Positions 6,804-49,053 of a stretch of 53,617 nucleotides of DNA are shown piece by piece. The stretch's first letter is position 1, and each line of letters starts with the position of its first letter. The stretch is taken from IMG/VR virus record IMGVR_UViG_3300046007_010355, positions 1 through 53,617 of that record, one strand, 5' to 3'. Source of the stretch: a virus. Lineage: Duplodnaviria > Caudoviricetes. The position numbers and the translations under genes are program-made. Under the pieces are notes generated by a model. The model saw only the letters and a list, made by a program, of their open reading frames with translations. It was not told the origin of the DNA and ran no database searches.

Positions 6804-7196
6804 TTACATATCTGAATCGAAATTACCTTGCATACGGATTTGTTCTATATCATTCTTTTCTGCGTAGTCGTCGATATACATGGCTAATTTAAAATCTAGT
6901 ATTGTCAGCCCTTCGACATCGGAAGTCGAAGTCTTAATTGTGACCTCGGCAACATCTTGTGTAACCTCGGCGAAGTGATCTAGTTTTTCACTTATACTAT
7001 TAACATATTCTACAAATTCTACAGCATGGCGATGATCTTTAGCCATGTATGTGGCTGTTAGGATTCTATGGTCAAGCATTTCCCAATCTGGTAAGAATCG
7101 ACTTTTTGCATCATCAAGATCGGCATCGGCTGGCACAAATTCTTCGATATCTTTTGATCTATATTTTCCTTCTGCAATATCGATCCAATTTCTCAT
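6804..7196 (-). CDS. Pterin-4-alpha-carbinolamine dehydratase-like protein
   Basis: LPDW...AVEFVEYV...SEKLDHFAEV...EGLTILDFKLA matches the PCD/PhhB pattern, with diverged His motifs. Confidence 0.75.
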   Translation of the reverse strand: MRNWIDIAEGKYRSKDIEEFVPADADLDDAKSRFLPDWEMLDHRILTATYMAKDHRHAVEFVEYVNSISEKLDHFAEVTQDVAEVTIKTSTSDVEGLTILDFKLAMYIDDYAEKNDIEQIRMQGNFDSDM

Positions 7197-7864
7197 TGTG
7201 TGCGATCCTTGTTATCAATAGCACGTTCTATCTTTGCGATATTATATTTACGAGATCCGCATTTATCTCTTAACATATAACTTATAGCCATCTTTGTTAA
7301 ACCCAAATCTAATCTAGTTCCTACTTTTTCTGTTCCGTCTTTGTATGTTACTTGATATTTTGCTCTGGCATATTGATTTGCCATTCCAGTATTCCAGGTT
7401 TTGATACCCCTTAGTGTTTCACTTCTGCGACGGTCTGCATCTGCTTTACGAGCAGCCTTTTCCTCTTCAGTTAAAACTTTTTTAGGTTTTGCTGTTCCTT
7501 TGTTCCAGGGATCTTTACCTTTTCTCTGTTCGCTCCATTTAGCACGAGTTTCCTCCGAAGGAACCCAGCCCGTTTGCCCTTCTCCACCTTCGCTCATATT
7601 GTAACCTTTAGGACCAAATGATTCGTATAGTGCGATATAAAATCTTTCTTTATCATTTAATAGGGTTTTATCTTCTATACTATCCTCGATGATTTCCCAA
7701 ACGAAGTTTTCTTCGCCGTACTTTCGTAATGCTCTATGGAAGGCGAATTTGCATCCTCTTCTGGTATCACTTAAATGATTATTTTTTCTAATGTTGAAAG
7801 GAAGTTCAGTCTTGCCTACATAAGACTTTTGATTAATTTGATTAGTAACTTTATATATTAACAT
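7193..7864 (-). mobile_element. Free-standing GIY-YIG homing endonuclease with NUMOD3-type DNA-binding repeats
   Basis: LIYKVTN...YVGKT...R...H, GYN, SEETRAKWSEQRKGKDPWNKG; likely start at ATG 7864, preceded by TAAATA. Confidence 0.85.
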
Positions 7865-7898
7865 AAAGTTATTTATCATTTCACTTGTAAAGCCAGGG

Positions 7899-8318
7899 TT
7901 ATTGAGTTCTGTCTTTGTCATCAATAGCACCGCCTGTTATGAAAGCAGTACAACTTCTGCTGCCCGCACATTTAAAATGAAGAAAGTTACAGTATCCTAG
8001 ATCTGCTTTGTGTATTGTGGCCATAGTATCTGCATTTGGTTCATCGCCTTTAGCACCTTCTTCGATACATTTCCACATTTTATCACTTACATCAAATGCA
8101 GCACAGTTACCGCACTTCATTGTTCGAGCAGTCTTTTCTGTAATATTCCAACGTTTAGCAGCCTGTTTCCAGTAGTCTTCGGGTTCTTCTGGATTAGCAG
8201 GACCATAATGATATTGATCTATTGCTTTTTGACGATTTTTGAGATTAACATCGATATCGTAAGTAGCAACAGGACATCCTTTATTGGCTGCTTCTATAAG
8301 TTTTATATAGTTTCTCAT
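7899..8318 (-). CDS. Cys-rich protein with a HiPIP-like Fe-S or metal-binding motif
   Basis: CGNCAAF...GYC...KC...RSC..F cysteine pattern. Confidence 0.55.
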   Translation of the reverse strand: MRNYIKLIEAANKGCPVATYDIDVNLKNRQKAIDQYHYGPANPEEPEDYWKQAAKRWNITEKTARTMKCGNCAAFDVSDKMWKCIEEGAKGDEPNADTMATIHKADLGYCNFLHFKCAGSRSCTAFITGGAIDDKDRTQ

Positions 8319-8563
8319 TTCTTTTTACTAGGTTCAGCTGCTGCAAAACGAGCAGCTATGGCCATTCTATCTATGTGCGCAGGATCCTTTTTAGTTCCTG
8401 GCCTATTATTTAATCTAAATTGATGATATCGTTCAGGGTCGGCATTTCGAAATCTTGTTTGCCACACTTCTAAATCGTCAGAAGGTTTCAGTTTAGGTTG
8501 AATACCGACCGGTTTTATTTGAGCAGGTTCTTGGGTCGATTGTTGTGGATCCTGCTCACTTAC
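8315..8563 (-). CDS. -1 frame C-terminal extension (82 aa) of the 749-aa protein via a putative programmed frameshift
   Basis: Open frame VSEQDPQQSTQEPAQIKPVGIQPKLKPSDDLEVWQTRFRNADPERYHQF...DRMAIAARFAAAEPSKKK with no start of its own; entered at A AAA AAG (8563-8569); its stop overlaps the next ATG (ATGA). Confidence 0.65.
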   Translation of the reverse strand, partial: VSEQDPQQSTQEPAQIKPVGIQPKLKPSDDLEVWQTRFRNADPERYHQFRLNNRPGTKKDPAHIDRMAIAARFAAAEPSKKK

Positions 8564-10809
8564 TTTTTTGCTTTGTTATCGGCCCTCTTTTTAGCTTTCC
8601 ATGTTGCACCAAATGCACGTTGAGCTATTTCTTTTTTATCTAAACCACTACCTTTATAACCAGCTTTGATATGTTTAGCCATACGTTTAAATTTAGCCTC
8701 TGGTGGTGCCTCTTCGTTAATCTCACTCTCTAACATTTGTTTAAGTTGTTCAAAGTATGGATCTATATTTTCTAATTCTTCTGCCACACCTCTTCCGTGA
8801 TTACCATTAGCATACGTATTATAAGATTCTTGACCATAACCATTGTTGAAATTAGAATGATCTTCTTTAGAGAAAACTTCATCACCTTGTAGATTATTTA
8901 GAACAGCATTTAGATAATCTGCTGCTTTAGTAATTTTACTTTGTTGCCAAGCTTCTAAGCCCTCCATTTCACTGTATTGTCTAATGATCTTTAGCAATCT
9001 CATAGCATCTTCGATGATACTTGTAAGTTCATTGCTGGCCATAGATATTTCGTGATCGACTGTTTCTTTCATATTTGAATCGGGTTGATCATCTTCTGGT
9101 TTTCTGACTAAAAATATTTTATCTTCTAATTCAGGTTTATTTTTAATAATAGCGAGAGCATAATTATTAGCACCGCGTTTCCAATCAAATACTTTTAGTT
9201 CGCCTTTGCTTCTTAAAATTTTACCATTAATTTTTAAATACCAAGGACCACGATCTCTATCTATTAACTGTCTTTGAAAATTAGGATCGTCTTCATGACC
9301 TAATTCTTGACCAAGCTCGGCTTGTTTAAATCTACGTTTTTCAGCATCCATTTGACGTTGTTGATCTCGTTCATATCCTCTGTAATAACCTGCTTCGTCG
9401 ACAGAGTTATGAACCTTACTTACTTTTAATGCATCTACAGTTTCTATATCTCTCGCAATAGTTAATGTATCTTGTGCTGGATCCTTATCTAAAACTGTCC
9501 ATATACCTTGATGATATTCGACTTTGTCACCTTTTTCAAAACTATCGGCTACTATATCAGCAAAGCCTTCCGTTAAACTTTGTCTTGGCTCAACAAAATG
9601 TCGACCGTCGCCGTCTCGATGAATTATTTCATTGATGAAGTTCTGGGGAGTAGTCATTACTTCATCTATCATGTCTTGACCTATTGCGTCTACTATTCTG
9701 GGCCAGCCTCCTGGCTCTTTGGCAGGGATAAGTCGCCAATCTGTAACAAAACGATATTGTATATCTTGATTAGTAGTGTCATACCACTTGTGATCTAACC
9801 AATCCTCATAGCCTCGACCCTGGGGTCCGTAAACTCTTTCGTATTCCGCTTCTCGATCCTCTCGGTCTTTGGGATCTAAATAAAATATTGCTTCTATTTT
9901 TGGTCCTCCCCACTTGATCTTGACCTTGCCGGTAAACCGTTCTCCTCGAGGAAAGGGAGTTGCAGTATCCCCCATGGAATATTTTTTATTTTTTGGCCAA
10001 ACTAGTACATTCGTTCCCTTAAAATTTAAGGGAAGTTCAAGTGAGTCACCGCCATCGTCACCGCCGCGATTCGGGGCAAATTCATTTAATCGTTCTTCCG
10101 CCACACCTTGCTGCATATTGATGTAACTCGGGGGATTCTTTGGATCAAATTCTGTGCCCGCAGGTAAATTTTTACTATGTGCTACATGACCGTATATCCC
10201 TACATCGCCGTCAATAATGCTGTATTCTACACCTCTTTTGGGTTCTAAATTATACATAAAGGTTTCTGCGTCTTTATAGTTTGCAAATGGACCAAAAGCC
10301 ATTTGATCAGGATCTGCATTGATGTCATTTATATAATAGTCTGCCTGTCCTGGGTTGGTTTGATAGCCTTCCGCCACACTATCTTCTTTGTATGCCTTAC
10401 TATATTTGTCTCTCAATCTACCTAATTCTGCCTGACTGGCACCTCTACGACCTGCTGCCGCAGCCATCTTCATATACTTCTCGCCATGTTTTTTTACACC
10501 TGTGTGATACTGTAGACCGCTTTCTTCTACATCATTTTCGGCGAATGGTTTACGATGTTTTTCCTGACCGCTCTTTTGTTCTTTTTTCTTATCACGGTGT
10601 TTACCACCGCCAGTTTGTGGACGTAGATGACCCTGTCTTGGTTTTTGAGGAACTGTTGGAGTGGCTTCACTAGCTGATCTACGTTGTGTTTGACCTAAAT
10701 TATGTGAAACAGTGGAACCTCCTGCTGTGCTAGATGCACCGCCGGTAGCAGTTTCTAAAATATATCTAGTTTCTTTATCTTTTTGGATTTTTTTGAATTC
10801 GTTTGTCAT
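8560..10809 (-). CDS. Modular (poly)protein, probable head-internal protein
   Basis: 749 aa with repeated (V/L/I)xE junctions (DSVAEG, QQGVAEE, SLTEG, SVDEA, GRGVAEE) separating unrelated-looking modules. Confidence 0.7.
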   Translation of the reverse strand: MTNEFKKIQKDKETRYILETATGGASSTAGGSTVSHNLGQTQRRSASEATPTVPQKPRQGHLRPQTGGGKHRDKKKEQKSGQEKHRKPFAENDVEESGLQYHTGVKKHGEKYMKMAAAAGRRGASQAELGRLRDKYSKAYKEDSVAEGYQTNPGQADYYINDINADPDQMAFGPFANYKDAETFMYNLEPKRGVEYSIIDGDVGIYGHVAHSKNLPAGTEFDPKNPPSYINMQQGVAEERLNEFAPNRGGDDGGDSLELPLNFKGTNVLVWPKNKKYSMGDTATPFPRGERFTGKVKIKWGGPKIEAIFYLDPKDREDREAEYERVYGPQGRGYEDWLDHKWYDTTNQDIQYRFVTDWRLIPAKEPGGWPRIVDAIGQDMIDEVMTTPQNFINEIIHRDGDGRHFVEPRQSLTEGFADIVADSFEKGDKVEYHQGIWTVLDKDPAQDTLTIARDIETVDALKVSKVHNSVDEAGYYRGYERDQQRQMDAEKRRFKQAELGQELGHEDDPNFQRQLIDRDRGPWYLKINGKILRSKGELKVFDWKRGANNYALAIIKNKPELEDKIFLVRKPEDDQPDSNMKETVDHEISMASNELTSIIEDAMRLLKIIRQYSEMEGLEAWQQSKITKAADYLNAVLNNLQGDEVFSKEDHSNFNNGYGQESYNTYANGNHGRGVAEELENIDPYFEQLKQMLESEINEEAPPEAKFKRMAKHIKAGYKGSGLDKKEIAQRAFGATWKAKKRADNKAKK
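8778..10379 (-). repeat. Dispersed 12-nt direct repeat GTGTGGCGGAAG (three copies)
   Basis: Exact copies at 10368-10379 and 10095-10106, one-mismatch copy at 8778-8789; all in frame, encoding VAE. Confidence 0.75.
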
Positions 10810-11171
10810 TTTTTATTCCAATTACTAATTGGGCTCACGGTATATGTGTCAGGTAGTTCTGAACTTTCCATGTCTCCATGATTTAAGTCGTGCACCTTCA
10901 CTCCCGCTACCTTAGCTGATAATTTAATCATTTCTTGTTCTGCTTTACTATATGGATGAAGTGTTTTCCATCTACCTACCCAACTTTCTTCAGGCATATC
11001 GGGTAAATTTACTCCATCACATTTTGCCAAAGCCATTCCTAATCTATAAAGTTTATAATCGCTACTCCATCTATCATCGTCTGTGAATTTGTTTAAGCCT
11101 CTTGTGGCAAAGCGTTGCCTTTTAGAAGGTTCGGGATTCAATTGTTCAAAAATAAATTCACGTGCTCTCAT
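10806..11171 (-). CDS. Hypothetical protein
   Basis: Likely start MRAREFIFE through an ATGA overlap with dps. Confidence 0.75.
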   Translation of the reverse strand: MRAREFIFEQLNPEPSKRQRFATRGLNKFTDDDRWSSDYKLYRLGMALAKCDGVNLPDMPEESWVGRWKTLHPYSKAEQEMIKLSAKVAGVKVHDLNHGDMESSELPDTYTVSPISNWNKK

Positions 11172-11602
11172 TTTAAAGTTGCTCTTAACATCCATCCGTG
11201 CTTATCATGTGCATCTATTCTTGATGCTACAAAATCACTAAATCCATGCTCTCCTAAATTTTCTGATTCTTCAAAAAGTTTTTTGAAAATGATTTTCATT
11301 TTTTCATTATCCATTAACAGTTCTTGAACCATTTGCTTACTATCTAAAATTTCAGTTTCATCTTCTACTTTGGAAAGCATACTTAGCCTAGTATAGCTAC
11401 CGGGCATATATGTGCCTAAACTACGTATCTTTTCGGCAAAATCATCTATACTACCATATACTTCTTCGTAGATTTTGCCGAATAAACTATGTAAAGATTC
11501 AAAGAACATGCCTTCGACATTCCAATGAAATTGATGTGCCTTTAAATAAAAACTGAATTCGCTGGCAAAAGCGATTTTAGCAAGTTTATGTAGATTTTCC
11601 AT
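11168..11602 (-). CDS. dps: Dps-family DNA protection / ferritin-like protein
   Basis: KAHQFHWNVEG, LHSLF, IDDFAEKIR, HDKHGWML. Confidence 0.92.
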   Translation of the reverse strand: MENLHKLAKIAFASEFSFYLKAHQFHWNVEGMFFESLHSLFGKIYEEVYGSIDDFAEKIRSLGTYMPGSYTRLSMLSKVEDETEILDSKQMVQELLMDNEKMKIIFKKLFEESENLGEHGFSDFVASRIDAHDKHGWMLRATLK

Positions 11603-11608
11603 AATATA

Positions 11609-11914
11609 TTATTTACCTATCGGCTTCTCTCCGGTCATGTATGGCAAACTAAACCATAACTTAAACCATTCTGGTGTTCCTGGTTTAATATTGTTATCTC
11701 GCATTAATTTTGCCTTTTCGTTCGCTGTTTTACTAATGTTACTACCTTCATTGGTTTTTAAACTCAATTTATATTCGTGCAGTCTATTTGCAGAATTTAA
11801 ACCAGCGAGATATTGAACAATTTTTAATTCATTTATTGGATCTTCTGGAGAAATATATGCATCATCCTCACTATCTTTTAAAATATTTTCGCTGGTAATT
11901 TTGTATTGTTTCAT
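11609..11914 (-). CDS. Hypothetical protein
   Basis: 101-aa ORF with IKPGTPEWFKLWF motif; ATGA-coupled. Confidence 0.75.
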   Translation of the reverse strand: MKQYKITSENILKDSEDDAYISPEDPINELKIVQYLAGLNSANRLHEYKLSLKTNEGSNISKTANEKAKLMRDNNIKPGTPEWFKLWFSLPYMTGEKPIGK

Positions 11915-14900
11915 TTTTTTAATATTTTTTCAATTAGTGCGGACTTTATATTGTCAATACTTTCTGCTAAACTTTCGTTACTCTTATTACCCCAATTACC
12001 TTTAGCTTTACGGCATTTAACTAAAGCACCACTGGCATATGCACTTGGCCAAACTTTATACCTGCTTTTGACTTTGTAATAACAAGAATCTTTCTTTTCA
12101 TTCATAAATGTTTCGGAAAACATGGGTCCACCACAATGTGGGCATTTTTCACTTTGCTCGTTATGAGTTTTCTTTTTACAACTACCCGGGGCACCAGCTG
12201 GAACACCTTGAACTCTTGTGTAGCCTGACCAGCACTTTAATTCATCAATTTTTTCTTCTGCTGAATCTTGCTGATAAAGGTCATTGTTAGTAAAGTCATA
12301 TATCTCCCCATCCTTATCTATTTTTACTTTTATAAGCCTAGGACTTGGTATTCTAACAATTACACCTGGTTCTGTTCCATACAAACCAAATCTACCATAG
12401 CCTGAAACATTGGCTATGACACGCTGCCCTACTGTAGGTACCATGACTTTTCTAAGATTAGGATTATCGCCTTCAGGTACATTCTCATTCGATTTCTTTT
12501 TTGTAGCAACATTAATTGCTTTACCTGAACGCTCTGGATTAGGATCTTCTCTACGCTTTCTTGCTGCTGCACTAGCACGACCTTTTTTGCCTAAGGCTTG
12601 TGCTTTACTTTGTGGTAAACATTTAGGTTTACCTTCGCTATCGTCTCCACGAGCACAGTCACCACGTATTTTTCCATCAGGACCGAATCTTACCCATTTT
12701 TCTTTGAACCATTTTCTTAAGTTTTCATCTACTTTATCACTGTCGATATCTGTTTCGCCTACTAACTGACCACGTTTCACCGGACCTTTCTGTTTACCTT
12801 TAGCTTGAGCAGCTGGGCCTAATTTATGATATGTAGGAGAACCTGTTCCTGCAAATGCAGATTTTGGTAACATACCTTCTGTGGCTATTAGAGGATTTAT
12901 TAATGCTCTAAATAATCTTATTTCTGAAATTGGCAATTGTGTTTTCGGAGACATAGAAGAATTCTTCCCTAGTGTAATATTCATTAGATTTCTAATCCAA
13001 TTTTGATCTTTGATACTAAAACTTGAAAACCAAACTTTATCTTGCATTTGCTGATCTGTGAGATTTGCATACTCAGGATGATCTTTTCTGTAACCATCTG
13101 GATTTCTTAATACATTTCTAAGACCTGTAAAACTGATTCCAGTTCCTCCTGTTTTTTCCGAACGTTCTGTAATATATGGAATTACTTTAACATGTTCATA
13201 TCCTGCAAATTTGTTAACAGCCTTCATTAAAGCCGATGCCATCTGTTTGGCCATACTTTCTCTATCTTTACCTACAGCGATAACAATCGTATCATACTTT
13301 GGTAATTTTCCTGGCAGTGGATTAATTAGTTCATGCTTAACTTTTTGTATCAGTGACCCGCCTTGCATAACTGTGCTGATGTTTTGTGCATGTTCAGGAT
13401 CTAATTTATGCCATGTTTTTACTTTGATAGCAGGCGGGATAGGGTCATCCTTGCCTTCTGCATTACCAATAAACAGATAAGGATCGCCTCCTAACTCTGT
13501 TGCTTTTTCTTTTGTTAAGTTCCAAAGTTGTTCGTGCCCTTTATGTCCAACAAAACTGCCAATAGCAACTACCGCAGTTTTATTAGTATTTTCTCTGCCG
13601 TGATCTGTACGAGCAGCAGCTTTGGCAGCATTTTTTTGTGCTATAATGTCTTTCTGCCTCTGACTGGTTACTTTGATTGGACCTAATCGACTATTAATTA
13701 CTATACCTTCATAGTCCTGTCCTAACATATCCTTGCCAATAATATTAGGATCTTCATCGATAGCTTTTTCTAATGCAATCTGTATAGGTTTTAATTGTGC
13801 TTCAACTTGTCTACGTAGATCTAAACTGGCGCGATCTCGCTTACCTGCTGTATCACTTACAATTCGTTTGAGCTCTTCTAGGTTTTCTAAAGGAGGTATA
13901 ATTGCTGTAACATCTAGTCCTTGTTTTTGTATGAGTCGATTGCTCATGAACATCACTTTGCCTTGATTGCCTAGACCTGTTATAGCTTTAAGCTCGTCTT
14001 CAGTTTCTGGAATATCTTCGCCTGTAGTAGCATCTACTATACGATAGGGGACCAGAACTAGTTCAACTCCGGTAGGTAATTTATCATATTCTATGCCAAC
14101 AAACAATAATTTGCCTTCTGGTGTTTCTGTAGCAAAAGGAGCAAATAGTACTTCACAAGTAACCTGTTTGTTTAGAAGAAATTCTGGACCTAAATTTGCA
14201 TCTACCATTTTAATGGCATACATTATTTGGTTAAACAAATCATCAAACAGTCCTGCTCTACGTAGAATATCTGGATCAGTTGTTCCTTTTTGTTGATGAT
14301 AGTCTAGAAATCCTGCCTTGTAACGAGGTTCAGTTCTACTCGTTCCCATAAAAGGTTGACCATCGGCATTCTTACCAAATCTGCCACCAAATCCGTCTAC
14401 CTTTACATTTAACGGTATGTCTTGTAGTTTAAAATTACCGTTGCCGTCATGTATTTCGTCTAACAAGTCTAAAAAATCCGCAGGCTTAAGATCTCGTAGA
14501 TGAGGCATATTTTTTCTTAATTGTGCCTTTACTTCTGCTTCTGTCAAAGAAGCCTGTTGTCGAGCTTTTAATTTTTTAAGTTCGGCTCGGGGTTGTTTAA
14601 TATCTGGATTGGCTTTTTTAAATGCTTCTAATTCTTCATAATCGGCTGTATATGCCGTAGCCATATCGATTGCTTCCTGTCTTAATCCGGTAGGATTAGG
14701 TAATTTAAGTGGTTTAATATTTTCTTCCTTATTACCTAATATCATTGCATCTACGGCTGCGAATTTAATATCTCTATCTCTAATCGGATCACCTTTAGTG
14801 ATCATTTGTTCTCCAGGGTCAAACAAAATTTTTAAAAATTGACGAGCAATTCCTTCGTTGACTTCGGGAGTAAACTCTTGATTCATTAATTGAATTGTAC

Positions 14901-15843
14901 CTAAAAAACTATTTTGTAAAGCAACATCTTGTTTAGTTCTTTTTCTACCAAATAAAGATAAAAATTGCTTATCTAAATTTTGAACATATTCTCTATCTTC
15001 TGAATCGACTTCTACTTTTACAGGAATATTGTTAATAAACATAGGTTCACCGGTATTAGGATCAATATAATCTTTATATCTATCGGATAAACCTCCTCCC
15101 TGACTACTTTTGACAGCAAAACTCTTATCTGCTGATACTACAGGTTCTGGTGAAATTTCTGTAGGTTTTCTTTTATAAACTTTGGCAATATATTTTTCAG
15201 TGGCTTGTGATATGGGTATACTTCTATATAGGTATTTGTGAAAGACTCCTTTTATTCCTTGTGCCATATCATTATAATCAGCACTGTGACTAAATTTAAA
15301 CCATTCAGTAGGTTTGCCTGTTTCGGGTTCATAAGGTCCTAATTCATAATCAACCTGCACTTTTATTGGAGGATCGTCTAATAACCAAAGACCCGATAAA
15401 CTGGCATTAAATCCAATAAATGTAGCATTACCGATTTTTTTACCTATAATGCTTTTAAGCCAAGCATTAATTTCATCTGCAATTTCTCGATCTACCTGTG
15501 TATCTATGTCACCGACTTTGGTTTTCTTTAATTTGTTGAGAAAATCTTGTGTATTAACACCTTTTACATCCATAAAATACAAACTACTGCCACTGAACAT
15601 ATCATTGCCGTCTAATAACTTTGGATCCCAAATTGGACGACCGTATGCAGCTTCAAATGATTGATTTTGTGCTTTCAACAATTCTCGCATTTTTTCAACC
15701 ATAAAATCACGATTATGAAGTTTTAAATCTATTTCTTCTGCTTTATGTTCTCCGGGAACGCCTTGCCAACCCGGGCTATCTGAACCAACATTACCGCCTT
15801 CAGTTATTAAATTTTGTTTTCTAAATAATTGATTAAGAAACAT
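11911..15843 (-). CDS. Multidomain protein: Pol-beta-like nucleotidyltransferase + ligase-like KxDG domain + HxGH cytidylyltransferase-like domain + small basic/Cys modules
   Basis: SGSS...GDID...QVD; VKVDG...EVLF...EGIV...IKV; FVGHKGH; C-terminal LRKWFKEKWV, CPHC and WPSAYASG modules. Confidence 0.65.
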   Translation of the reverse strand: MFLNQLFRKQNLITEGGNVGSDSPGWQGVPGEHKAEEIDLKLHNRDFMVEKMRELLKAQNQSFEAAYGRPIWDPKLLDGNDMFSGSSLYFMDVKGVNTQDFLNKLKKTKVGDIDTQVDREIADEINAWLKSIIGKKIGNATFIGFNASLSGLWLLDDPPIKVQVDYELGPYEPETGKPTEWFKFSHSADYNDMAQGIKGVFHKYLYRSIPISQATEKYIAKVYKRKPTEISPEPVVSADKSFAVKSSQGGGLSDRYKDYIDPNTGEPMFINNIPVKVEVDSEDREYVQNLDKQFLSLFGRKRTKQDVALQNSFLGTIQLMNQEFTPEVNEGIARQFLKILFDPGEQMITKGDPIRDRDIKFAAVDAMILGNKEENIKPLKLPNPTGLRQEAIDMATAYTADYEELEAFKKANPDIKQPRAELKKLKARQQASLTEAEVKAQLRKNMPHLRDLKPADFLDLLDEIHDGNGNFKLQDIPLNVKVDGFGGRFGKNADGQPFMGTSRTEPRYKAGFLDYHQQKGTTDPDILRRAGLFDDLFNQIMYAIKMVDANLGPEFLLNKQVTCEVLFAPFATETPEGKLLFVGIEYDKLPTGVELVLVPYRIVDATTGEDIPETEDELKAITGLGNQGKVMFMSNRLIQKQGLDVTAIIPPLENLEELKRIVSDTAGKRDRASLDLRRQVEAQLKPIQIALEKAIDEDPNIIGKDMLGQDYEGIVINSRLGPIKVTSQRQKDIIAQKNAAKAAARTDHGRENTNKTAVVAIGSFVGHKGHEQLWNLTKEKATELGGDPYLFIGNAEGKDDPIPPAIKVKTWHKLDPEHAQNISTVMQGGSLIQKVKHELINPLPGKLPKYDTIVIAVGKDRESMAKQMASALMKAVNKFAGYEHVKVIPYITERSEKTGGTGISFTGLRNVLRNPDGYRKDHPEYANLTDQQMQDKVWFSSFSIKDQNWIRNLMNITLGKNSSMSPKTQLPISEIRLFRALINPLIATEGMLPKSAFAGTGSPTYHKLGPAAQAKGKQKGPVKRGQLVGETDIDSDKVDENLRKWFKEKWVRFGPDGKIRGDCARGDDSEGKPKCLPQSKAQALGKKGRASAAARKRREDPNPERSGKAINVATKKKSNENVPEGDNPNLRKVMVPTVGQRVIANVSGYGRFGLYGTEPGVIVRIPSPRLIKVKIDKDGEIYDFTNNDLYQQDSAEEKIDELKCWSGYTRVQGVPAGAPGSCKKKTHNEQSEKCPHCGGPMFSETFMNEKKDSCYYKVKSRYKVWPSAYASGALVKCRKAKGNWGNKSNESLAESIDNIKSALIEKILKK

Positions 15844-17135: not shown

Positions 17136-17783
17136 TCAAGTATTTATGCTAGACCTTAATACAAATTTTTCTATGTGTCCTATATATTGGTTATAAGTTA
17201 ATAGCATCATAGTAATCATTTTAGGGTCTGAAACATATACAAATGGACTTTGTATCCATTGACGTTTACCCTTTAAGTACTCTGCGGTCGATTTACTTAT
17301 TTTAAAAATTTCTTTGTGTTGATTTAACCAATTATAGATTTCTAATTTGGCATATGTTGGAATATTCTTAAAAAATACTTTATGTGTATAACATTCATAG
17401 GGATAACTATCTACTATAGTTAATTTACTATTTTCTGTAAGCAATTTTTTTTCAGTATCACTATGAGGTTCCCAAACCTTAACAATATGCTGTGATAAAT
17501 CTTGTGTTAAAGATTCGAATAAAGCTTTATCCTCTAAAAATATATTAAGATATGACCCTTCTAATCTTGTTTTGATTAATTTTTGTTCAATCAGTGGTGA
17601 TAATAAAAGTAAAAGGTGCTGTAAATTTTTTCCGCTTGATGTATGGTTAAGATTCAGCAAATTAATTACACCCAATATACCATAATATTTGACTTTGTTA
17701 ATTCCTAAAACAAAGCAAGATATTTTGTAGGGGAATTTGTTATAAAATAGTTTACTGGTTTTCTGTTTGTGTAAATTTTTCAT
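17136..17783 (-). CDS. Hypothetical protein
   Basis: 215-aa ORF downstream of clpA. Confidence 0.75.
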   Translation of the reverse strand: MKNLHKQKTSKLFYNKFPYKISCFVLGINKVKYYGILGVINLLNLNHTSSGKNLQHLLLLLSPLIEQKLIKTRLEGSYLNIFLEDKALFESLTQDLSQHIVKVWEPHSDTEKKLLTENSKLTIVDSYPYECYTHKVFFKNIPTYAKLEIYNWLNQHKEIFKISKSTAEYLKGKRQWIQSPFVYVSDPKMITMMLLTYNQYIGHIEKFVLRSSINT

Positions 17784-20022
17784 TTTTAATTTTTACAGGT
17801 AACGGATCGATATATTCAAAGTGTAATTGTTGTTTTAGGACTGAAATTTCAACAATACCACCATTTGTCAATTTGCCAAATAAAATTTCTTTGCTTAACG
17901 GCTTCTTAATCATTTCTTCGATTGTTCTAAAAAGAGGTCTAGCACCCATCTTTTTATCGAATCCTTTATCTACTAAAAATTCGTAGGCATCGGAATTTAA
18001 TTTAACATGAATGTTTTTGTCTTTGACTAATAAATTCAATTCGTCTACAAATTTCTTAACAATCTTAATCATTGTGGTTTTATCTAGTTTACCGAACTGT
18101 ATAATAGCATCTATTCTATTTCTAAATTCCGGACTAAAGAATTGATTAATAGTGTTGTTGGGATCTTGTTCTTTTTCTAAATTACCAAAACCAATTGAAT
18201 TTTTTTCGGCATCTGCTGCACCTATATTACTGGTCATAATTAAGATAAGATTACGAGCATCTGCCTTTTTACCATTACTACCGGTAACAAATCCATTATC
18301 CATAAGCTGTAGCATAATTGTAATTACATCGGGATGAGCTTTTTCAATTTCATCTAACAGCAGTACACAGTTTGGATTTTCTTGGATTTGAGTAATTAAT
18401 TGTCCAGCATTATCTTCGAATCCAACGTATCCGGGTGGACTACCGATGAATTTTGCAACACTATGTTTTTCTTGATATTCACTCATGTCGAATCGAACTA
18501 ATTTTACATGCAAATTAGATGCTAATTGTTTAGCAACTTCAGTTTTTCCTACACCGGTGGGTCCAACAAAAAGAAAGTTTCCTACTGGTTTGTTAATGCT
18601 TTTTAATCCTGATTGCGCAATATATACTTTGTCTAATAGATTTTTAATTGCTTTTTCTTGACCAAACACAGCATTAAATAAGTTTTTTTCTAAATTAGCT
18701 AAATTAACACTTTCTTTACTGTTCAGTTGCTCTACAGGTAAGTTTGACAATTTAGCAATTTCGAACAAAATTTCTGAACGATCTACTACTCCGTTTTCTT
18801 CATCTTTAATTTTAAATCTTGCTGATGCACAATCAATTATATCAATTGCTTTATCTGGCAATTTTTTATCACTGATATATTTCACACTATATTTTACTGC
18901 GTCAATAACGGCTTGATTTGTAATTTTTACTTTATGATGTTTCTCAAAATATTTTTTTAATCCTTTTAGGATTTTAATTGCAGTATCTTCATCTGGTTCT
19001 TCAACCGTAACTTTTTGGAATCTGCGCATTAACGCACGATCTTTTTCAAAATGTTTTCTATATTCTTCCCAAGTTGTACTAGCAATAACTTTAATATTTC
19101 CTTTACCTAACGCATTTTTTAACATATTGGCCATATCATTGCTGCCACCGTTGCTGGTGCCTGCACCGTTCATCATATGTGCTTCGTCGATAAAAAGGAT
19201 ACATTTACCCCTGCGTTCAACTGCATTTATAACTGCTTTAAGCCGTTCTTCAAAATCTCCTCGATATTTACTACCTGCCAATAAACTACTGATCTCTAAA
19301 CTATAAACTGTGTGATCTTTAATAAATTCTGGAACATTTCCTTCAATTATCTTTCTAGCAATACCTTCTGCTATAGCTGTTTTACCCACACCCGGGTCTC
19401 CGATAAGAATAGCATTTGCTTTATTTCTTCTAGCCAGAATTAGTTGAACCTCTTCGATTTCTTTCTCTCGTCCAATTACAGGGTCTATTTTTTTGTTCTT
19501 TGCTTTTGCTGTTAAATTAACGCAGAATTGTGTAATGATTTTTTCAAGTTGATGTAGTGCTTGATTGCTCAATGTACCATCTTTATTTTGTTTTTCTTCT
19601 TTTTTAATAAAATTCAAAAATGGTTCTTTTTCAATATTTGCTTGACGAACAAAATGATTTGCATGGCTTTTCTTTTCGTTTAACAAACTAATAAAGCAGT
19701 CTAGTGGTTCGATAATTTGTCTACCACTGAATAACACTTCATGAAATGCTCTATTTAGAACTCTGTCTACTGTTGCAGTCTTTTTAGGTTTTTCTATAGA
19801 CGGATTAACAATATCGTTTAATTCATTAGAAATAAAATTTTCTAGATTTTCTTGCAGTTGATCTACATCAGCACCAAAGTTTTTTAATAGTTGATTCAAT
19901 GATTGATTAGAAATCATACTGTACAGGAAATGTTCTAAGGTCACATATTCATGATTTTTTGAAATGGCAAGTTGTACAGCATTATCGAAAATATTTTCTA
20001 GATCTTTATTTGGTTCTAACAT
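17752..20022 (-). CDS. clpA: ATP-dependent Clp protease ATP-binding subunit ClpA-like
   Basis: Clp N domain (HEYVTLEH), two AAA+ modules (GDPGVGKT, GPTGVGKT), RFDMSEYQEKHSVA, GARPL; no ClpB coiled-coil; likely start at ATG 20022. Confidence 0.92.
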   Translation of the reverse strand: MLEPNKDLENIFDNAVQLAISKNHEYVTLEHFLYSMISNQSLNQLLKNFGADVDQLQENLENFISNELNDIVNPSIEKPKKTATVDRVLNRAFHEVLFSGRQIIEPLDCFISLLNEKKSHANHFVRQANIEKEPFLNFIKKEEKQNKDGTLSNQALHQLEKIITQFCVNLTAKAKNKKIDPVIGREKEIEEVQLILARRNKANAILIGDPGVGKTAIAEGIARKIIEGNVPEFIKDHTVYSLEISSLLAGSKYRGDFEERLKAVINAVERRGKCILFIDEAHMMNGAGTSNGGSNDMANMLKNALGKGNIKVIASTTWEEYRKHFEKDRALMRRFQKVTVEEPDEDTAIKILKGLKKYFEKHHKVKITNQAVIDAVKYSVKYISDKKLPDKAIDIIDCASARFKIKDEENGVVDRSEILFEIAKLSNLPVEQLNSKESVNLANLEKNLFNAVFGQEKAIKNLLDKVYIAQSGLKSINKPVGNFLFVGPTGVGKTEVAKQLASNLHVKLVRFDMSEYQEKHSVAKFIGSPPGYVGFEDNAGQLITQIQENPNCVLLLDEIEKAHPDVITIMLQLMDNGFVTGSNGKKADARNLILIMTSNIGAADAEKNSIGFGNLEKEQDPNNTINQFFSPEFRNRIDAIIQFGKLDKTTMIKIVKKFVDELNLLVKDKNIHVKLNSDAYEFLVDKGFDKKMGARPLFRTIEEMIKKPLSKEILFGKLTNGGIVEISVLKQQLHFEYIDPLPVKIKNEKFTQTENQ

Positions 20023-20023
20023 A

Positions 20024-20515
20024 TTATTTTTTCCTTTTACTCTTTTTAACCGCAAGTGCCCATTTGATATTTGATATTCTATCTTTAAATGTGATTCCTT
20101 CTAAGTGATCTAATTCGTGTAGAAAACATTTACAATTATATCCGTCGAATATATCTTCTTGCCATTCTCCTTTTGAATTTTGCCATCTAGCTTTAATTTT
20201 TTTAGGACGTTTAATATTAACATAAATTCCCGGGAAGCTCAAACAGCCTTCTTCTAGATTTTCTACATCATCTAAATGTGCAACAACCATGGGATTAAAG
20301 AAAGCTTGTGCATTATCTGGGTAATCTTTATGTCCCATTACGAATACTCTTGCACTTATTCCTATTTGATTAGCTGCTAATCCTATTCCATTTTCTTTAA
20401 ACATAATATCTATCATATCTTTTTCTAATTGGATAGGATCATATTTTGGATTAGAAAAATCAAAGTTTTCTATCCTTTGAAATAATATTGGATTTGGATA
20501 TTTTACAATTTGCAT
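20024..20515 (-). CDS. def: Peptide deformylase
   Basis: GIGLAANQIG, EGCLSFP, HELDHLEG. Confidence 0.97.
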   Translation of the reverse strand: MQIVKYPNPILFQRIENFDFSNPKYDPIQLEKDMIDIMFKENGIGLAANQIGISARVFVMGHKDYPDNAQAFFNPMVVAHLDDVENLEEGCLSFPGIYVNIKRPKKIKARWQNSKGEWQEDIFDGYNCKCFLHELDHLEGITFKDRISNIKWALAVKKSKRKK

Positions 20516-27161: not shown

Positions 27162-28094
27162 TCATTGTTCATAAATTCTAGCAAGTTTGATTAAAGTAGC
27201 TGACAGATTAATTTCCGGATCTGCAATAATCGTATGATCGATCAATCCTTGTTTTATAACTAATAATGAAGAATCTTGTTTTTCTTCTGTATCACCAAAT
27301 AAATTAATATTCTGATACATCCATGTATATACTTCACTGATTTCTTCAGGACGAATTCTCCCGCACAATAACGTTCTTGCTTCTCGAATTTTTCCCTTTT
27401 TAAATAATTCGACCATTTCAAATTTAAAATCACCGTTAATTTCAGTGTTATGACGAGGGATGTTTAGATTTTTATCTTCATCGACATTTTGTTGAACTGT
27501 ATTGATACATTTTCTTAAATCTGGATAGGTTGTTTTAACATATGTATCTAGCGTATCTAAATTGAAATTAACATTTTCACTTACTAAAATTGTGGCGATT
27601 CTGGCTGTAAATTCAGTCTGATCAGTTTTTTCGAAATGAAATCCCTGACACCTGCTATGTATAGCAGGGATAATTCTATACATATAATTACATGTAAGAA
27701 TAAATCGGCTAGTATTTGAATATTGTTCCATTACGCCCCTTAAAATTGCTTGGGCATTTGGAGTTAAATAATCTGCTTCATCTAATAAAACAACCTTAAA
27801 ATCTCCAAATGGAATCATTTGAACAAAATTAATAATCTTATCTCGTACTGTTTCGACGTTATTTTCTCGGCTTGCATTTATTTCTAAGACATCTAAATCT
27901 TCAATTCCTATTTCATTAATTAAGATTTTAGCCAGGGTAGTCTTACCAATACCTGCTGCACCACTGAATAATAGATGTGGGAAAGATTTGTCTTTAATCC
28001 ATCTGGTTACCTGTTGTTTCTGTTCGTTGTCTTTAAAAACATATTCAGTAATTGTTTTAGGTCTATATTTTTCTACCCATAGGTTATTTTTCAT
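27162..28094 (-). CDS. Clamp loader subunit (T4 gp44 / RFC small subunit-like)
   Basis: LWVEKYRP, GAAGIGKTT, INAS, LLDEAD, SRC. Confidence 0.93.
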   Translation of the reverse strand: MKNNLWVEKYRPKTITEYVFKDNEQKQQVTRWIKDKSFPHLLFSGAAGIGKTTLAKILINEIGIEDLDVLEINASRENNVETVRDKIINFVQMIPFGDFKVVLLDEADYLTPNAQAILRGVMEQYSNTSRFILTCNYMYRIIPAIHSRCQGFHFEKTDQTEFTARIATILVSENVNFNLDTLDTYVKTTYPDLRKCINTVQQNVDEDKNLNIPRHNTEINGDFKFEMVELFKKGKIREARTLLCGRIRPEEISEVYTWMYQNINLFGDTEEKQDSSLLVIKQGLIDHTIIADPEINLSATLIKLARIYEQ

Positions 28095-48639: not shown

Positions 48640-49053
48640 TTATTTTTGATCAGTCAATCCGGCAATAATTTGAAAATTTTCCCAAGCTTTTTTAACAGCA
48701 GGATGGCTTTCCATATCTTCCTGTGAAGGTCCTACTTCTAGCCAATAATAGGGCAAACGACCAGGACGAGCACCAAATTGTCTAGGTTGATGTAATTTTC
48801 CCTGATTCCATAAATCAATACTGACCGAACGAACCCTCTCTTCATCCTGTGTAGAAAAATTGCTCCATTCTGGCATTGACCATGGACTTCCTGCGGTATA
48901 ACCGCCACCATAACCTTGCCAAATACCATCCCATTGTTTTTGATCTCTGGGATCAAAATCTGTTCGAGCAATTATGACAAGTACATCTTTGATATCTACT
49001 TTGCCTTCTACAATATCTCGAACACATCTGCTGAACGAAAGGCCTATTTTCAT
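48640..49053 (-). CDS. Hypothetical protein
   Basis: MKIGLSFSRCVRDIV...GKLHQPR; likely start at 49053. Confidence 0.8.
   Translation of the reverse strand: MKIGLSFSRCVRDIVEGKVDIKDVLVIIARTDFDPRDQKQWDGIWQGYGGGYTAGSPWSMPEWSNFSTQDEERVRSVSIDLWNQGKLHQPRQFGARPGRLPYYWLEVGPSQEDMESHPAVKKAWENFQIIAGLTDQK

Follow-up and report, generated by a model that had tools for sequence, protein, structure and literature searches.

A probable programmed -1 ribosomal frameshift at the end of a mosaic phage protein gene

In the IMG/VR viral contig IMGVR_UViG_3300046007_010355 (53,617 nt; CheckV completeness 15%), hereafter the window, i.e. the whole stretch of DNA that was analysed, an open reading frame (ORF) of 749 codons on the minus strand ends with GCA AAA AAG TAA, and 82 further sense codons follow in the -1 frame. 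How these two frames are related, and whether one protein or two are made from them, is the question raised by this locus. The original prediction, made from the letters of the window, had proposed a dnaX-style -1 programmed frameshift at the heptamer A_AAA_AAG, assisted by a 3' hairpin and leading to two isoforms. Programmed -1 ribosomal frameshifting is very probably the best reading of this cassette, because of the signal itself, the conservation of the signal, the constraint seen on the -1 frame as a coding sequence, and the existence of relatives in which the same module is fused in frame, all of these lines of evidence being computational.

According to this reading, most ribosomes would read AAA AAG and terminate at the adjacent TAA, yielding the 749-aa protein. 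A fraction of them would pause at the G+C-rich stem-loop that begins 4-5 nt past the heptamer and possibly extends to a pseudoknot; both tRNA-Lys would then slip back by one base on A_AAA_AAG, and 82 more codons would be translated in the -1 frame. The product of the shift would be an isoform of 831 aa, carrying in addition a Pro/Gln/Glu-rich linker and a helix-loop-helix mini-domain of ~45 aa with a basic tail. Slippage by the ribosome, its efficiency and the role of the mini-domain are what we infer from the observations described in the following.

The proposed shift site and its conservation

The anatomy given in the original prediction, namely the end of the ORF, the heptamer, an 8-bp hairpin at a distance of 4 nt, the 82-codon extension and the ATGA overlap with the next gene, was confirmed in all its coordinates (table 1). 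The -1 frame is indeed closed by a stop upstream of the heptamer, but two codons before its AAA AAA, and not three, so that any shift is confined to a 4-codon overlap containing the heptamer. From 8563 onwards the -1 frame reads VSEQDPQQSTQEPAQIKPVGIQPKLKPSDDLEVWQTRFRNADPERYHQF...SKKK, that is, a Pro/Gln/Glu-rich linker followed by the conserved mini-domain. The statement that this frame has no plausible start was slightly too strong, since a GTG at 8467, one codon ahead of a conserved Trp, opens an ORF of 50 aa (8315-8467).

The heptamer AAAAAAG occurs 36 times in the window when both strands are considered, and 10 of these copies have a stem of at least 7 bp (G-U pairs allowed) 3-8 nt downstream. 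Only the copy at 8563-8569 is followed by a G+C-rich stem, with five G-C pairs of eight vs 0-2 in the others; the copy at 48693 (minus strand) has an A+T-rich stem of 10 bp, but, as worked out by hand, it lies outside the X_XXY_YYZ register of its ORF and was discarded. The sequence of the window by itself is thus modest evidence, and it is through conservation that the signal appears to be more than chance.

An exact 19-mer covering the heptamer, the stop and the 5' arm of the stem was found in 33 IMG/VR contigs, giving a set of 36 rows (the 33 contigs, two protein-found loci on two of those contigs, and the window). The zero frame ends with AAG TAA in 36/36 rows, after which 73-287 codons are free of stops in the -1 frame (52 at a single locus, which is cut by the contig end). 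Such a search presupposes the signal; the unbiased query was alignment A1, i.e. the C-terminal ~45 residues of the extension alone. In the A1 search of IMG/VR, with both peptide patterns lying within the C-terminal domain, 186 stretches were matched and 58 confirmed, and the names of the 58 confirmed contigs bear 53 different data-set numbers. Together with the window, the total is 59 loci, and 29 distinct cassette sequences are found among those of the frameshift type.

In 49 of the 59 loci, a long ORF has an in-register A_AAA_AA[G/A] at its end and the domain comes after it in the -1 frame; in the remaining 10 the domain is fused in frame, and as a stand-alone gene it was found in none of the 59. 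The heptamer is in register in all 49 out-of-frame loci, and the stop is directly adjacent to it in 47 of them (AAAAAAG with adjacent TAA in 41, AAAAAAA with adjacent TAA in six), the other two having AAAAAAG with a TAG one codon later and an A9G run with a TAA five codons later, respectively. Heptamer, adjacent stop and hairpin are, therefore, conserved in homologues that were retrieved by a search making no use of these features, and the exact 19-mer is missing from 21 of the 49 frameshift-type loci. Furthermore, the codon that precedes Lys-Lys varies among the cassettes (GCA, TCA, ACA, CCA, CTA, GAA), as do the upstream C-termini (..AWKAKNKAKK, ..GYKSHKAKK, ..AKVEELAKK, ..PEKKPKK), which argues that the signal is kept independently of the protein sequence before it.

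Assemblies other than that of the window bear on the length of the A-run. The Logan contigs of runs X1, X5 and X6 each cover 8250-8750 without insertion or deletion, i.e. with A6, the sole difference from the window being a synonymous G>A at 8581 in X5 and X6; X1 is possibly the source sample, and X5 and X6, being of equal sizes, are possibly one data set. In run X7 the stretch 8556-8691 is not covered. Of A6 and A7, the alternatives named in the original prediction, A6 is favoured by independent assemblies at the level of contigs, which are blind to rare variants. In X5 and X6, a second contig of lower depth, from a related phage, matches the window at 8544-8577 only. This match consists of the heptamer, the stop and the 5' stem arm, both flanks being divergent, and the cassette is the most conserved nucleotide island between these co-occurring related phages.

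The second body of evidence comes from the extension, which sequence comparison shows to be a genuine C-terminal module of the protein family. When the profile of the mini-domain was run against 1.84 billion representatives, 162 proteins were matched at E <= 0.001 and 78 at E <= 1e-10. Among the best 150 of the 162 matches, the domain begins more than 62 residues into the protein in 124, and in 124/124 of these it lies within 10 residues of the C-terminus. In the remaining 26 of the best 150 it is found near the N-terminus, as in P0007 and P0043, which start just before ..KKVSEQEP, and this placement is as expected if the gene caller sees the -1 ORF alone. These 26 representatives have been left by gene callers as orphan small ORFs, and recognition of the site corrects the annotation of the whole family. 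In-frame relatives read ...EDAYMxxL..[VL]AEKLNPxAP-VDVWVQDFQKADPNKYHQF..., whereas frameshift relatives read ...EDAYMESLLARLEEQTKK up to the stop and then, in the -1 frame, a Pro/Gln/Glu-rich linker of ~30 codons that contains the hairpin; the comparison places the shift site at the homologous junction. With the extension being an in-frame C-terminal module in most relatives, the shift would dose a normal part of the protein rather than create a new one.

Homologues fused in frame without a slippery site had been named in the original prediction as a finding that would speak against it. Such homologues do exist (the 10 loci and 124 representatives mentioned above), yet the frameshift claim survives, because the out-of-frame loci all keep the shift signal over 53 data-set numbers, something not to be expected of an assembly error. 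In a tree of the domain (109 rows, 46 columns), from which rows without W...F...[YC].QF or with fewer than 40 residues, exact duplicates and the 10 in-frame IMG/VR loci were excluded, the in-frame and frameshift labels are clustered, with 0/500 shuffles as low. The tree is unrooted and 56 of its 104 inner branches are open, so that it supports no claim that one arrangement arose once or that it preceded the other. The coexistence of in-frame, slippery-heptamer and A9 versions nevertheless offers a natural series on how recoding signals arise or are lost.

As to the mini-domain itself, the best AlphaFold2 model of a 48-aa domain reaches a predicted local distance difference test (pLDDT) score of 91.8, the other four models ranging between 66 and 77. 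A helix (2-10), a loop, a second helix (32-47) and a basic tail are predicted. Foldseek returned no match for the model in the PDB at E <= 0.001, and a search of the ESM Atlas with the extension gave a best score of 0.83, below the meaningful level. In some relatives the extension is longer, reaching 233-287 codons in L007, L012 and L036 and 131-135 codons in L010 and L015; there, the -1 frame continues past the mini-domain into further modules joined by ..ENF.. motifs, so that whole modules would be expressed via the shift only.

The predicted stem-loop, the open -1 frame and competing explanations

In the window, the 71 nt of the stem-loop region fold with -12.9 kcal/mol (z = -2.2; 7 of 200 shuffles as good), and two further pairs follow the 8-bp stem past a mismatch, the spacer from the heptamer being 4 nt to the stem and 5 nt to its invariant core. 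All 27 hairpin-type cassettes are predicted to fold to a stem-loop closed by GAGCAGG/CCUGCUC, the minimum free energies for 70 nt ranging from -14.8 to -26.6 kcal/mol and z from -0.8 to -5.6, and the spacer between the heptamer and the GAGCAGG stem is 5 nt in every one of them. The six-pair core AGCAGG/CCUGCU is invariant in 27/27 distinct cassettes, and so is each of the codons GAG, CAG, CCT and GCT that make up the arms, whereas in 11 of 11 control columns of conserved residues the codons vary synonymously, with two to five codons each (e.g. Gln, CAA 12 and CAG 15; Pro, CCA 15, CCT 9, CCG 2 and CCC 1; Ala, GCT 8, GCC 7, GCA 11 and GCG 1). The frozen synonymous sites of the arms are a stronger argument for the hairpin than covariation. 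Outside the core, the flanking pair is G-C in 12, A-U in one and U-A in one cassette at position 9, where 13 are unpaired, and C-G in 21 and G-C in one at position 10.

The loop may engage in further pairing. The window belongs to the class of cassettes with a 23-nt loop, and in this class a 5-mer located 11-14 nt past the stem is the complement of loop positions 11-15, as CCGAC/GTCGG in five cassettes and as CCAAC/GTTGG in L045, where the change is a double synonymous one. For the hairpin with the second stem, 77.5% of the cells of alignment A2 are paired, as opposed to 21-37% when the partners are slid; the covariation score is 0.118, that of shuffled alignments being 0.051 (0/500 shuffles as high). 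The structure, however, was derived from the same sequences, and the CCGGC/GCCGG variants are palindromic. For these two reasons the pseudoknot is regarded as possible only.

The same fusion product would result from transcriptional slippage, i.e. from the addition of an A within the A-run by the RNA polymerase of phage or host, which is used by Thermus dnaX (PMC5009743). In two relatives, L041 (~1390-1440) and L071 (~1435-1470), the run is A9G, the linker is 10 codons long and the GAGCAGG hairpin is missing, the pattern expected where this mechanism has replaced the ribosomal one. These A9 loci hint at polymerase slippage, with a homopolymer error as the alternative at L041, which has an in-frame near relative (P0082). 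In the window and 46 other loci, however, the run is A6 or A7 only, and runs of this length are short for efficient polymerase slippage. Furthermore, the X_XXY_YYZ register, the fixed 5-nt spacer and the frozen arm codons would be useless to a polymerase, being features of a ribosomal signal. For the cassette of the window this explanation is, therefore, considered improbable.

A further question is whether translation of the -1 frame begins at the shift site at all or, instead, two separate genes are present, with a protein of ~50 aa made from an internal start (the GTG at 8467 in the window, ATG in relatives) and the linker acting as an untranslated spacer with a regulatory hairpin or terminator. 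Besides the 50-aa GTG ORF, this explanation can draw on an ATG five codons before the Trp in 17 of the 29 distinct cassettes and on the near-N-terminal domain of the 26 gene-called representatives. The linker, defined as the stretch between the heptamer and the conserved Trp (14-41 codons), speaks for translation: over the 29 cassettes it contains no stop in the -1 frame (29/29 open), but 77 in the zero frame (0/29 open) and 92 in the +1 frame (1/29 open). Its PVGPQPKL motif, which precedes every possible start and can be recognised in 15 of the 29 cassettes, shows pairwise differences of 0.257/0.132/0.465 at codon positions 1/2/3, hence a third-position substitution bias, and 346 synonymous vs 167 non-synonymous codon pairs, counts that come from related sequences and are not independent. 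Changes in length, moreover, are multiples of three, as with the hairpin-arm spacings of 23, 35 and 41 nt. The ATG is missing in 12 of the 29 cassettes, and in five of the 29 the Trp is preceded by neither ATG nor GTG nor TTG; no Shine-Dalgarno (SD)-like GGAG or GAGG was seen, by eye and unscored, in the 14 nt before the candidate starts; the hairpin of the window is not followed by a T-run; and the domain is in frame with the same protein family in the 10 loci and 124 representatives described above. Two separate genes are, thus, held to be as improbable as polymerase slippage, and the -1 ORF appears to be coding from the shift site on, with no conserved start of its own. Re-initiation or read-through at the TAA was rejected, since the zero frame opens with GTG but stops after 14 codons, besides the 77 zero-frame stops in the linkers of the family.

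Artefact or decay, whether an assembly or sequencing indel among the A residues or a gene of in-frame ancestry that has recently become a pseudogene, is scarcely credible as the origin of the arrangement. Homopolymers are prone to indels, in-frame relatives exist and L041 taken alone could be an error; yet the out-of-frame arrangement recurs over 53 data-set numbers and 29 distinct cassettes, and the Logan re-assemblies contain no indel. Nor would a broken gene retain 73-287 open codons, an in-register heptamer with the stop beside it, or a hairpin in which synonymous sites are frozen.

Some observations weigh against programmed ribosomal frameshifting or against parts of the signal as proposed. 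The hairpin of the window is the weakest of its family (-14.8 kcal/mol over 70 nt). Being invariant, the core provides no covariation, the stem arms also encode conserved residues (EQ and PA), and the covariation seen elsewhere consists of few events among related sequences, to which the origin of the structure tested on A2 and the limited independence of the Logan runs should be added. A GAGG upstream of the heptamer had been proposed as a stimulator, but only 7 of the 29 distinct cassettes have an SD-like motif 6-16 nt upstream, six of them at a distance of 7 nt, and an upstream SD was, therefore, dismissed as a part of the signal for want of conservation. The ATG of 17 cassettes could be a separate start, and a product of 47-50 aa might be made from it or, in the window, from the GTG at 8467. 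Finally, the window encodes no tRNA. On balance, the cassette appears to have what defines a bacterial-type -1 programmed frameshift signal, i.e. a heptamer in register, a 3' structure and a coding -1 ORF, and the proposal of a dnaX-style shift giving two isoforms is supported by conservation, coding constraint and the A6 run.

A mosaic protein and its possible fate in the phage head

The 749-aa protein is a mosaic, the modules at residues 1-92, 93-147, 234-415, 585-643 and 683-749 each being shared with different contigs. A tblastn search of the phage collection with the whole protein gave nothing beyond a 60-residue module in two cyanophages (three records), and neither Pfam nor PHROG assigned a family to the protein, to its extension or to the product of the following 139-aa gene. 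Long relatives of 612-1139 aa start with M..EFKK..TRYVLES, continue with varied modules, in some cases including a GNAT-like motif recognised by eye, and have the mini-domain at their end. The conserved N-terminus of the family, M..EFKK..TRY[IV]LE, is reminiscent of the T4 capsid-targeting sequence, and no more than that. Two modules are in common between the family and a 708-aa hypothetical protein of cyanophage S-SM2 (SSM2_109; L100 2713-4839), which is encoded between the small and large terminase genes. The end of the S-SM2 protein is formed by a ..RKSFCARM..RAWNC module, also present in L060 and L084.

A short motif punctuates these proteins. In 89 family proteins of at least 300 aa, GVAE is the commonest 4-mer (176 occurrences) and VAE is found 220 times vs 16.1 expected (standard deviation 4.0), with Gly before it in 176 cases and after it in 135, and with at least two sites in 63 of the 89 proteins. 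Repeated (Q)GVAE(G) punctuation was noted in the protein of the window and in P0011, P0019, P0041 and P0136. In the 749-aa protein, [VIL]-x-E sites are at residues 17, 94, 145, 236, 412, 470 and 675, and the V/L-x-E sites 94, 145, 236 and 412 are at or near module borders. (Q)GVAE(G) looks like a protease cut site separating shuffled modules. The motif of the T4 prohead protease is L/I-x-E. A Peptidase_S77 (gp21-type) was found over the cut-off in three of five large related contigs (87-96 bits) and none in the window, a fragment ~15% complete.

Short x-X-E motifs are the sites at which the prohead proteases of T4 and of giant phages act, with the cut placed after the Glu (PMC5694885); the internal proteins of T4 are targeted to the head and then trimmed (PMC3012670, PMC5694885), and polyvalent phage proteins are predicted to be packaged in the head (PMC5512222). 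With GVAE punctuation and a gp21-type protease in the lineage, a coherent reading is that the 749-aa protein would be a head-packaged polyprotein, cut after Glu at GVAE-type junctions by a gp21-type prohead protease, a reading to which we give somewhat less than an even chance. Were it true, the trans-frame junction, KK-VSE-Q, would offer one more Glu cut site, and frameshifting would regulate the dosage of a delivered module of the protein. The original prediction had opposed a head-cargo polyprotein to a tail chaperone; its negative half is borne out by the gene context, and its positive half is plausible, drawing on GVAE and the protease.

A wider scheme, tentative and somewhat less likely than head packaging as such, would have the cassette as the last, regulated joint of a multi-module polyprotein that T4-like jumbo phages of fresh water deliver in the capsid, cut by the prohead protease at GVAE/G and KK-VSE/Q (the slash marking the cut). 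A shift aided by a hairpin-type pseudoknot would set the number of copies with the constant mini-domain, which might be an anchor or a packaging handle, and the lineage would achieve dosing in three ways, namely by in-frame fusion, by ribosomal slippage and by transcriptional slippage at A9.

Whatever its function, the family is an uncharacterised, mosaic and GVAE-punctuated one that is widespread in lake phages. It shares with T4 internal head proteins, giant-phage ejection proteins and polyvalent proteins the mosaic, multi-module build and a recurring motif that ends in Glu. In the open-access papers searched, neither a frameshift in head proteins of these types nor a description of the site or of the protein family was found.

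Relation to known frameshift systems and gene neighbourhood

The closest parallel to the cassette is that of E. coli dnaX, which has the same A_AAA_AAG with a simple 3' stem-loop a few nt downstream. The two differ in the possible second pseudoknot stem of the window and in the 5' SD stimulator of dnaX, to which no conserved element corresponds in the family. In dnaX the SD lies at 10 nt and the stem at 6 nt. No heptamer is more prone to shifting in E. coli than A_AAA_AAG, and in some bacterial dnaX genes, termed 'reversed', the shift site is followed at once by the zero-frame stop, the longer of the products being that of the shift (PMC5009743); the layout in the window is the same. Identity of the 749-aa protein with DnaX was rejected, as it belongs to no Pfam or PHROG family and the clamp loader is encoded by a separate gene.

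In elements of the IS3 family (IS911, IS150), an upstream ORF is fused to a -1 ORF by means of A_AAA_AAG and a 3' structure, as proposed for the window. An elaborate stem-loop structure of IS911 is mentioned in PMC5009743. The locus of the window, in contrast, has no transposase, inverted repeats or mobile-element context, and replication and virion genes are found around it.

Among the frameshifts of phage structural genes, those of lambda G/GT, T7 gene 10A/10B and the major head protein of Lactobacillus phage A2 likewise lead to fusion with a downstream -1 ORF. The sources for these cases are the PRFect paper with its reference list and, for T7 gene 10, a mention in PMC5009743. The 749-aa protein, however, is of another family, is not a capsid protein and is not encoded beside a tape-measure gene, and its extension is an ordinary module of the family, in frame in many relatives. 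The structural-gene heptamer is G_GGA_AAG, whereas that of the window is of the bacterial Lys-Lys type. A tail assembly chaperone of the G/GT type was excluded on account of the length of the protein, of its neighbours and of the tail-fibre genes being 23 kb distant. Only a small number of programmed frameshifts in phage genes other than those of tail chaperones are well supported, and in gene calling they end up split or truncated.

Table 1. Coordinates of the putative shift cassette and of genes referred to in the text
Feature	Position	Strand	Remarks
749-aa ORF (P0001)	8560-10809	minus	zero-frame ORF; C-terminus ...NKAKK, then TAA
TAA closing the -1 frame	8578-8576	minus	two codons before the AAA AAA of the -1 frame
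GAGG, SD-like	8587-8584	minus	14 nt before the heptamer; not a conserved element
Slippery heptamer A_AAA_AAG	8569-8563	minus	X_XXY_YYZ register of the zero frame
Zero-frame stop TAA	8562-8560	minus	directly 3' of the heptamer
Extension in the -1 frame	8563-8318	minus	82 sense codons, VSEQDPQ...SKKK; TGA at 8317-8315
Stem-loop	8520-8558	minus	arms TGAGCAGG (8558-8551) and CCTGCTCA (8527-8520); 8 bp, 23-nt loop
Candidate second stem of a pseudoknot	8505-8539	minus	loop TCGACC (8539-8534) with GGTCGG (8510-8505), 9 nt beyond the stem
Conserved C-terminal domain, ~45 aa	8333-8476	minus	W..RF...P..YHQF...P...MA.AA; alignment A1
Next gene, 139 aa	7899-8318	minus	Cys-rich; no Pfam or PHROG family; ATG (8318-8316) overlaps the TGA of the extension as ATGA
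GIY-YIG homing endonuclease	7193-7930	minus	PHROG 314, E = 1.2e-29
Clamp loader gene	27162-28094		separate from the 749-aa ORF

Every gene in the region of the 749-aa ORF is on the minus strand, and its neighbours are genes for a homing endonuclease, a DNA polymerase, a ferritin-like protein and a mosaic protein of 1310 aa. The GIY-YIG gene sits between the 139-aa gene, the end of which is overlapped by its start, and the DNA polymerase gene. A homologue of the 139-aa gene with 75.5% identity also comes after the extension in the relative L005. For the DNA polymerase of the window, the closest counterparts are encoded by jumbo T4-like myophages (Sinorhizobium phage Phosso, 49.6%; Agrobacterium phage Atu_ph07, 45.9%; Cronobacter phage GAP32, 43%). 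A blastn search of the phage collection with 7800-11200 gave no match, and DNA nearly identical to that of the window is present in lake and freshwater metagenomes.

Elsewhere on the minus strand, a Lon-like ATP-dependent protease of 767 aa is encoded at 17752-20055 (PHROG 4871, E = 1e-248). Segments of the 1310-aa protein (11911-15843, minus strand) match several unrelated PHROGs of unknown function, and it may be a second mosaic protein near the first.

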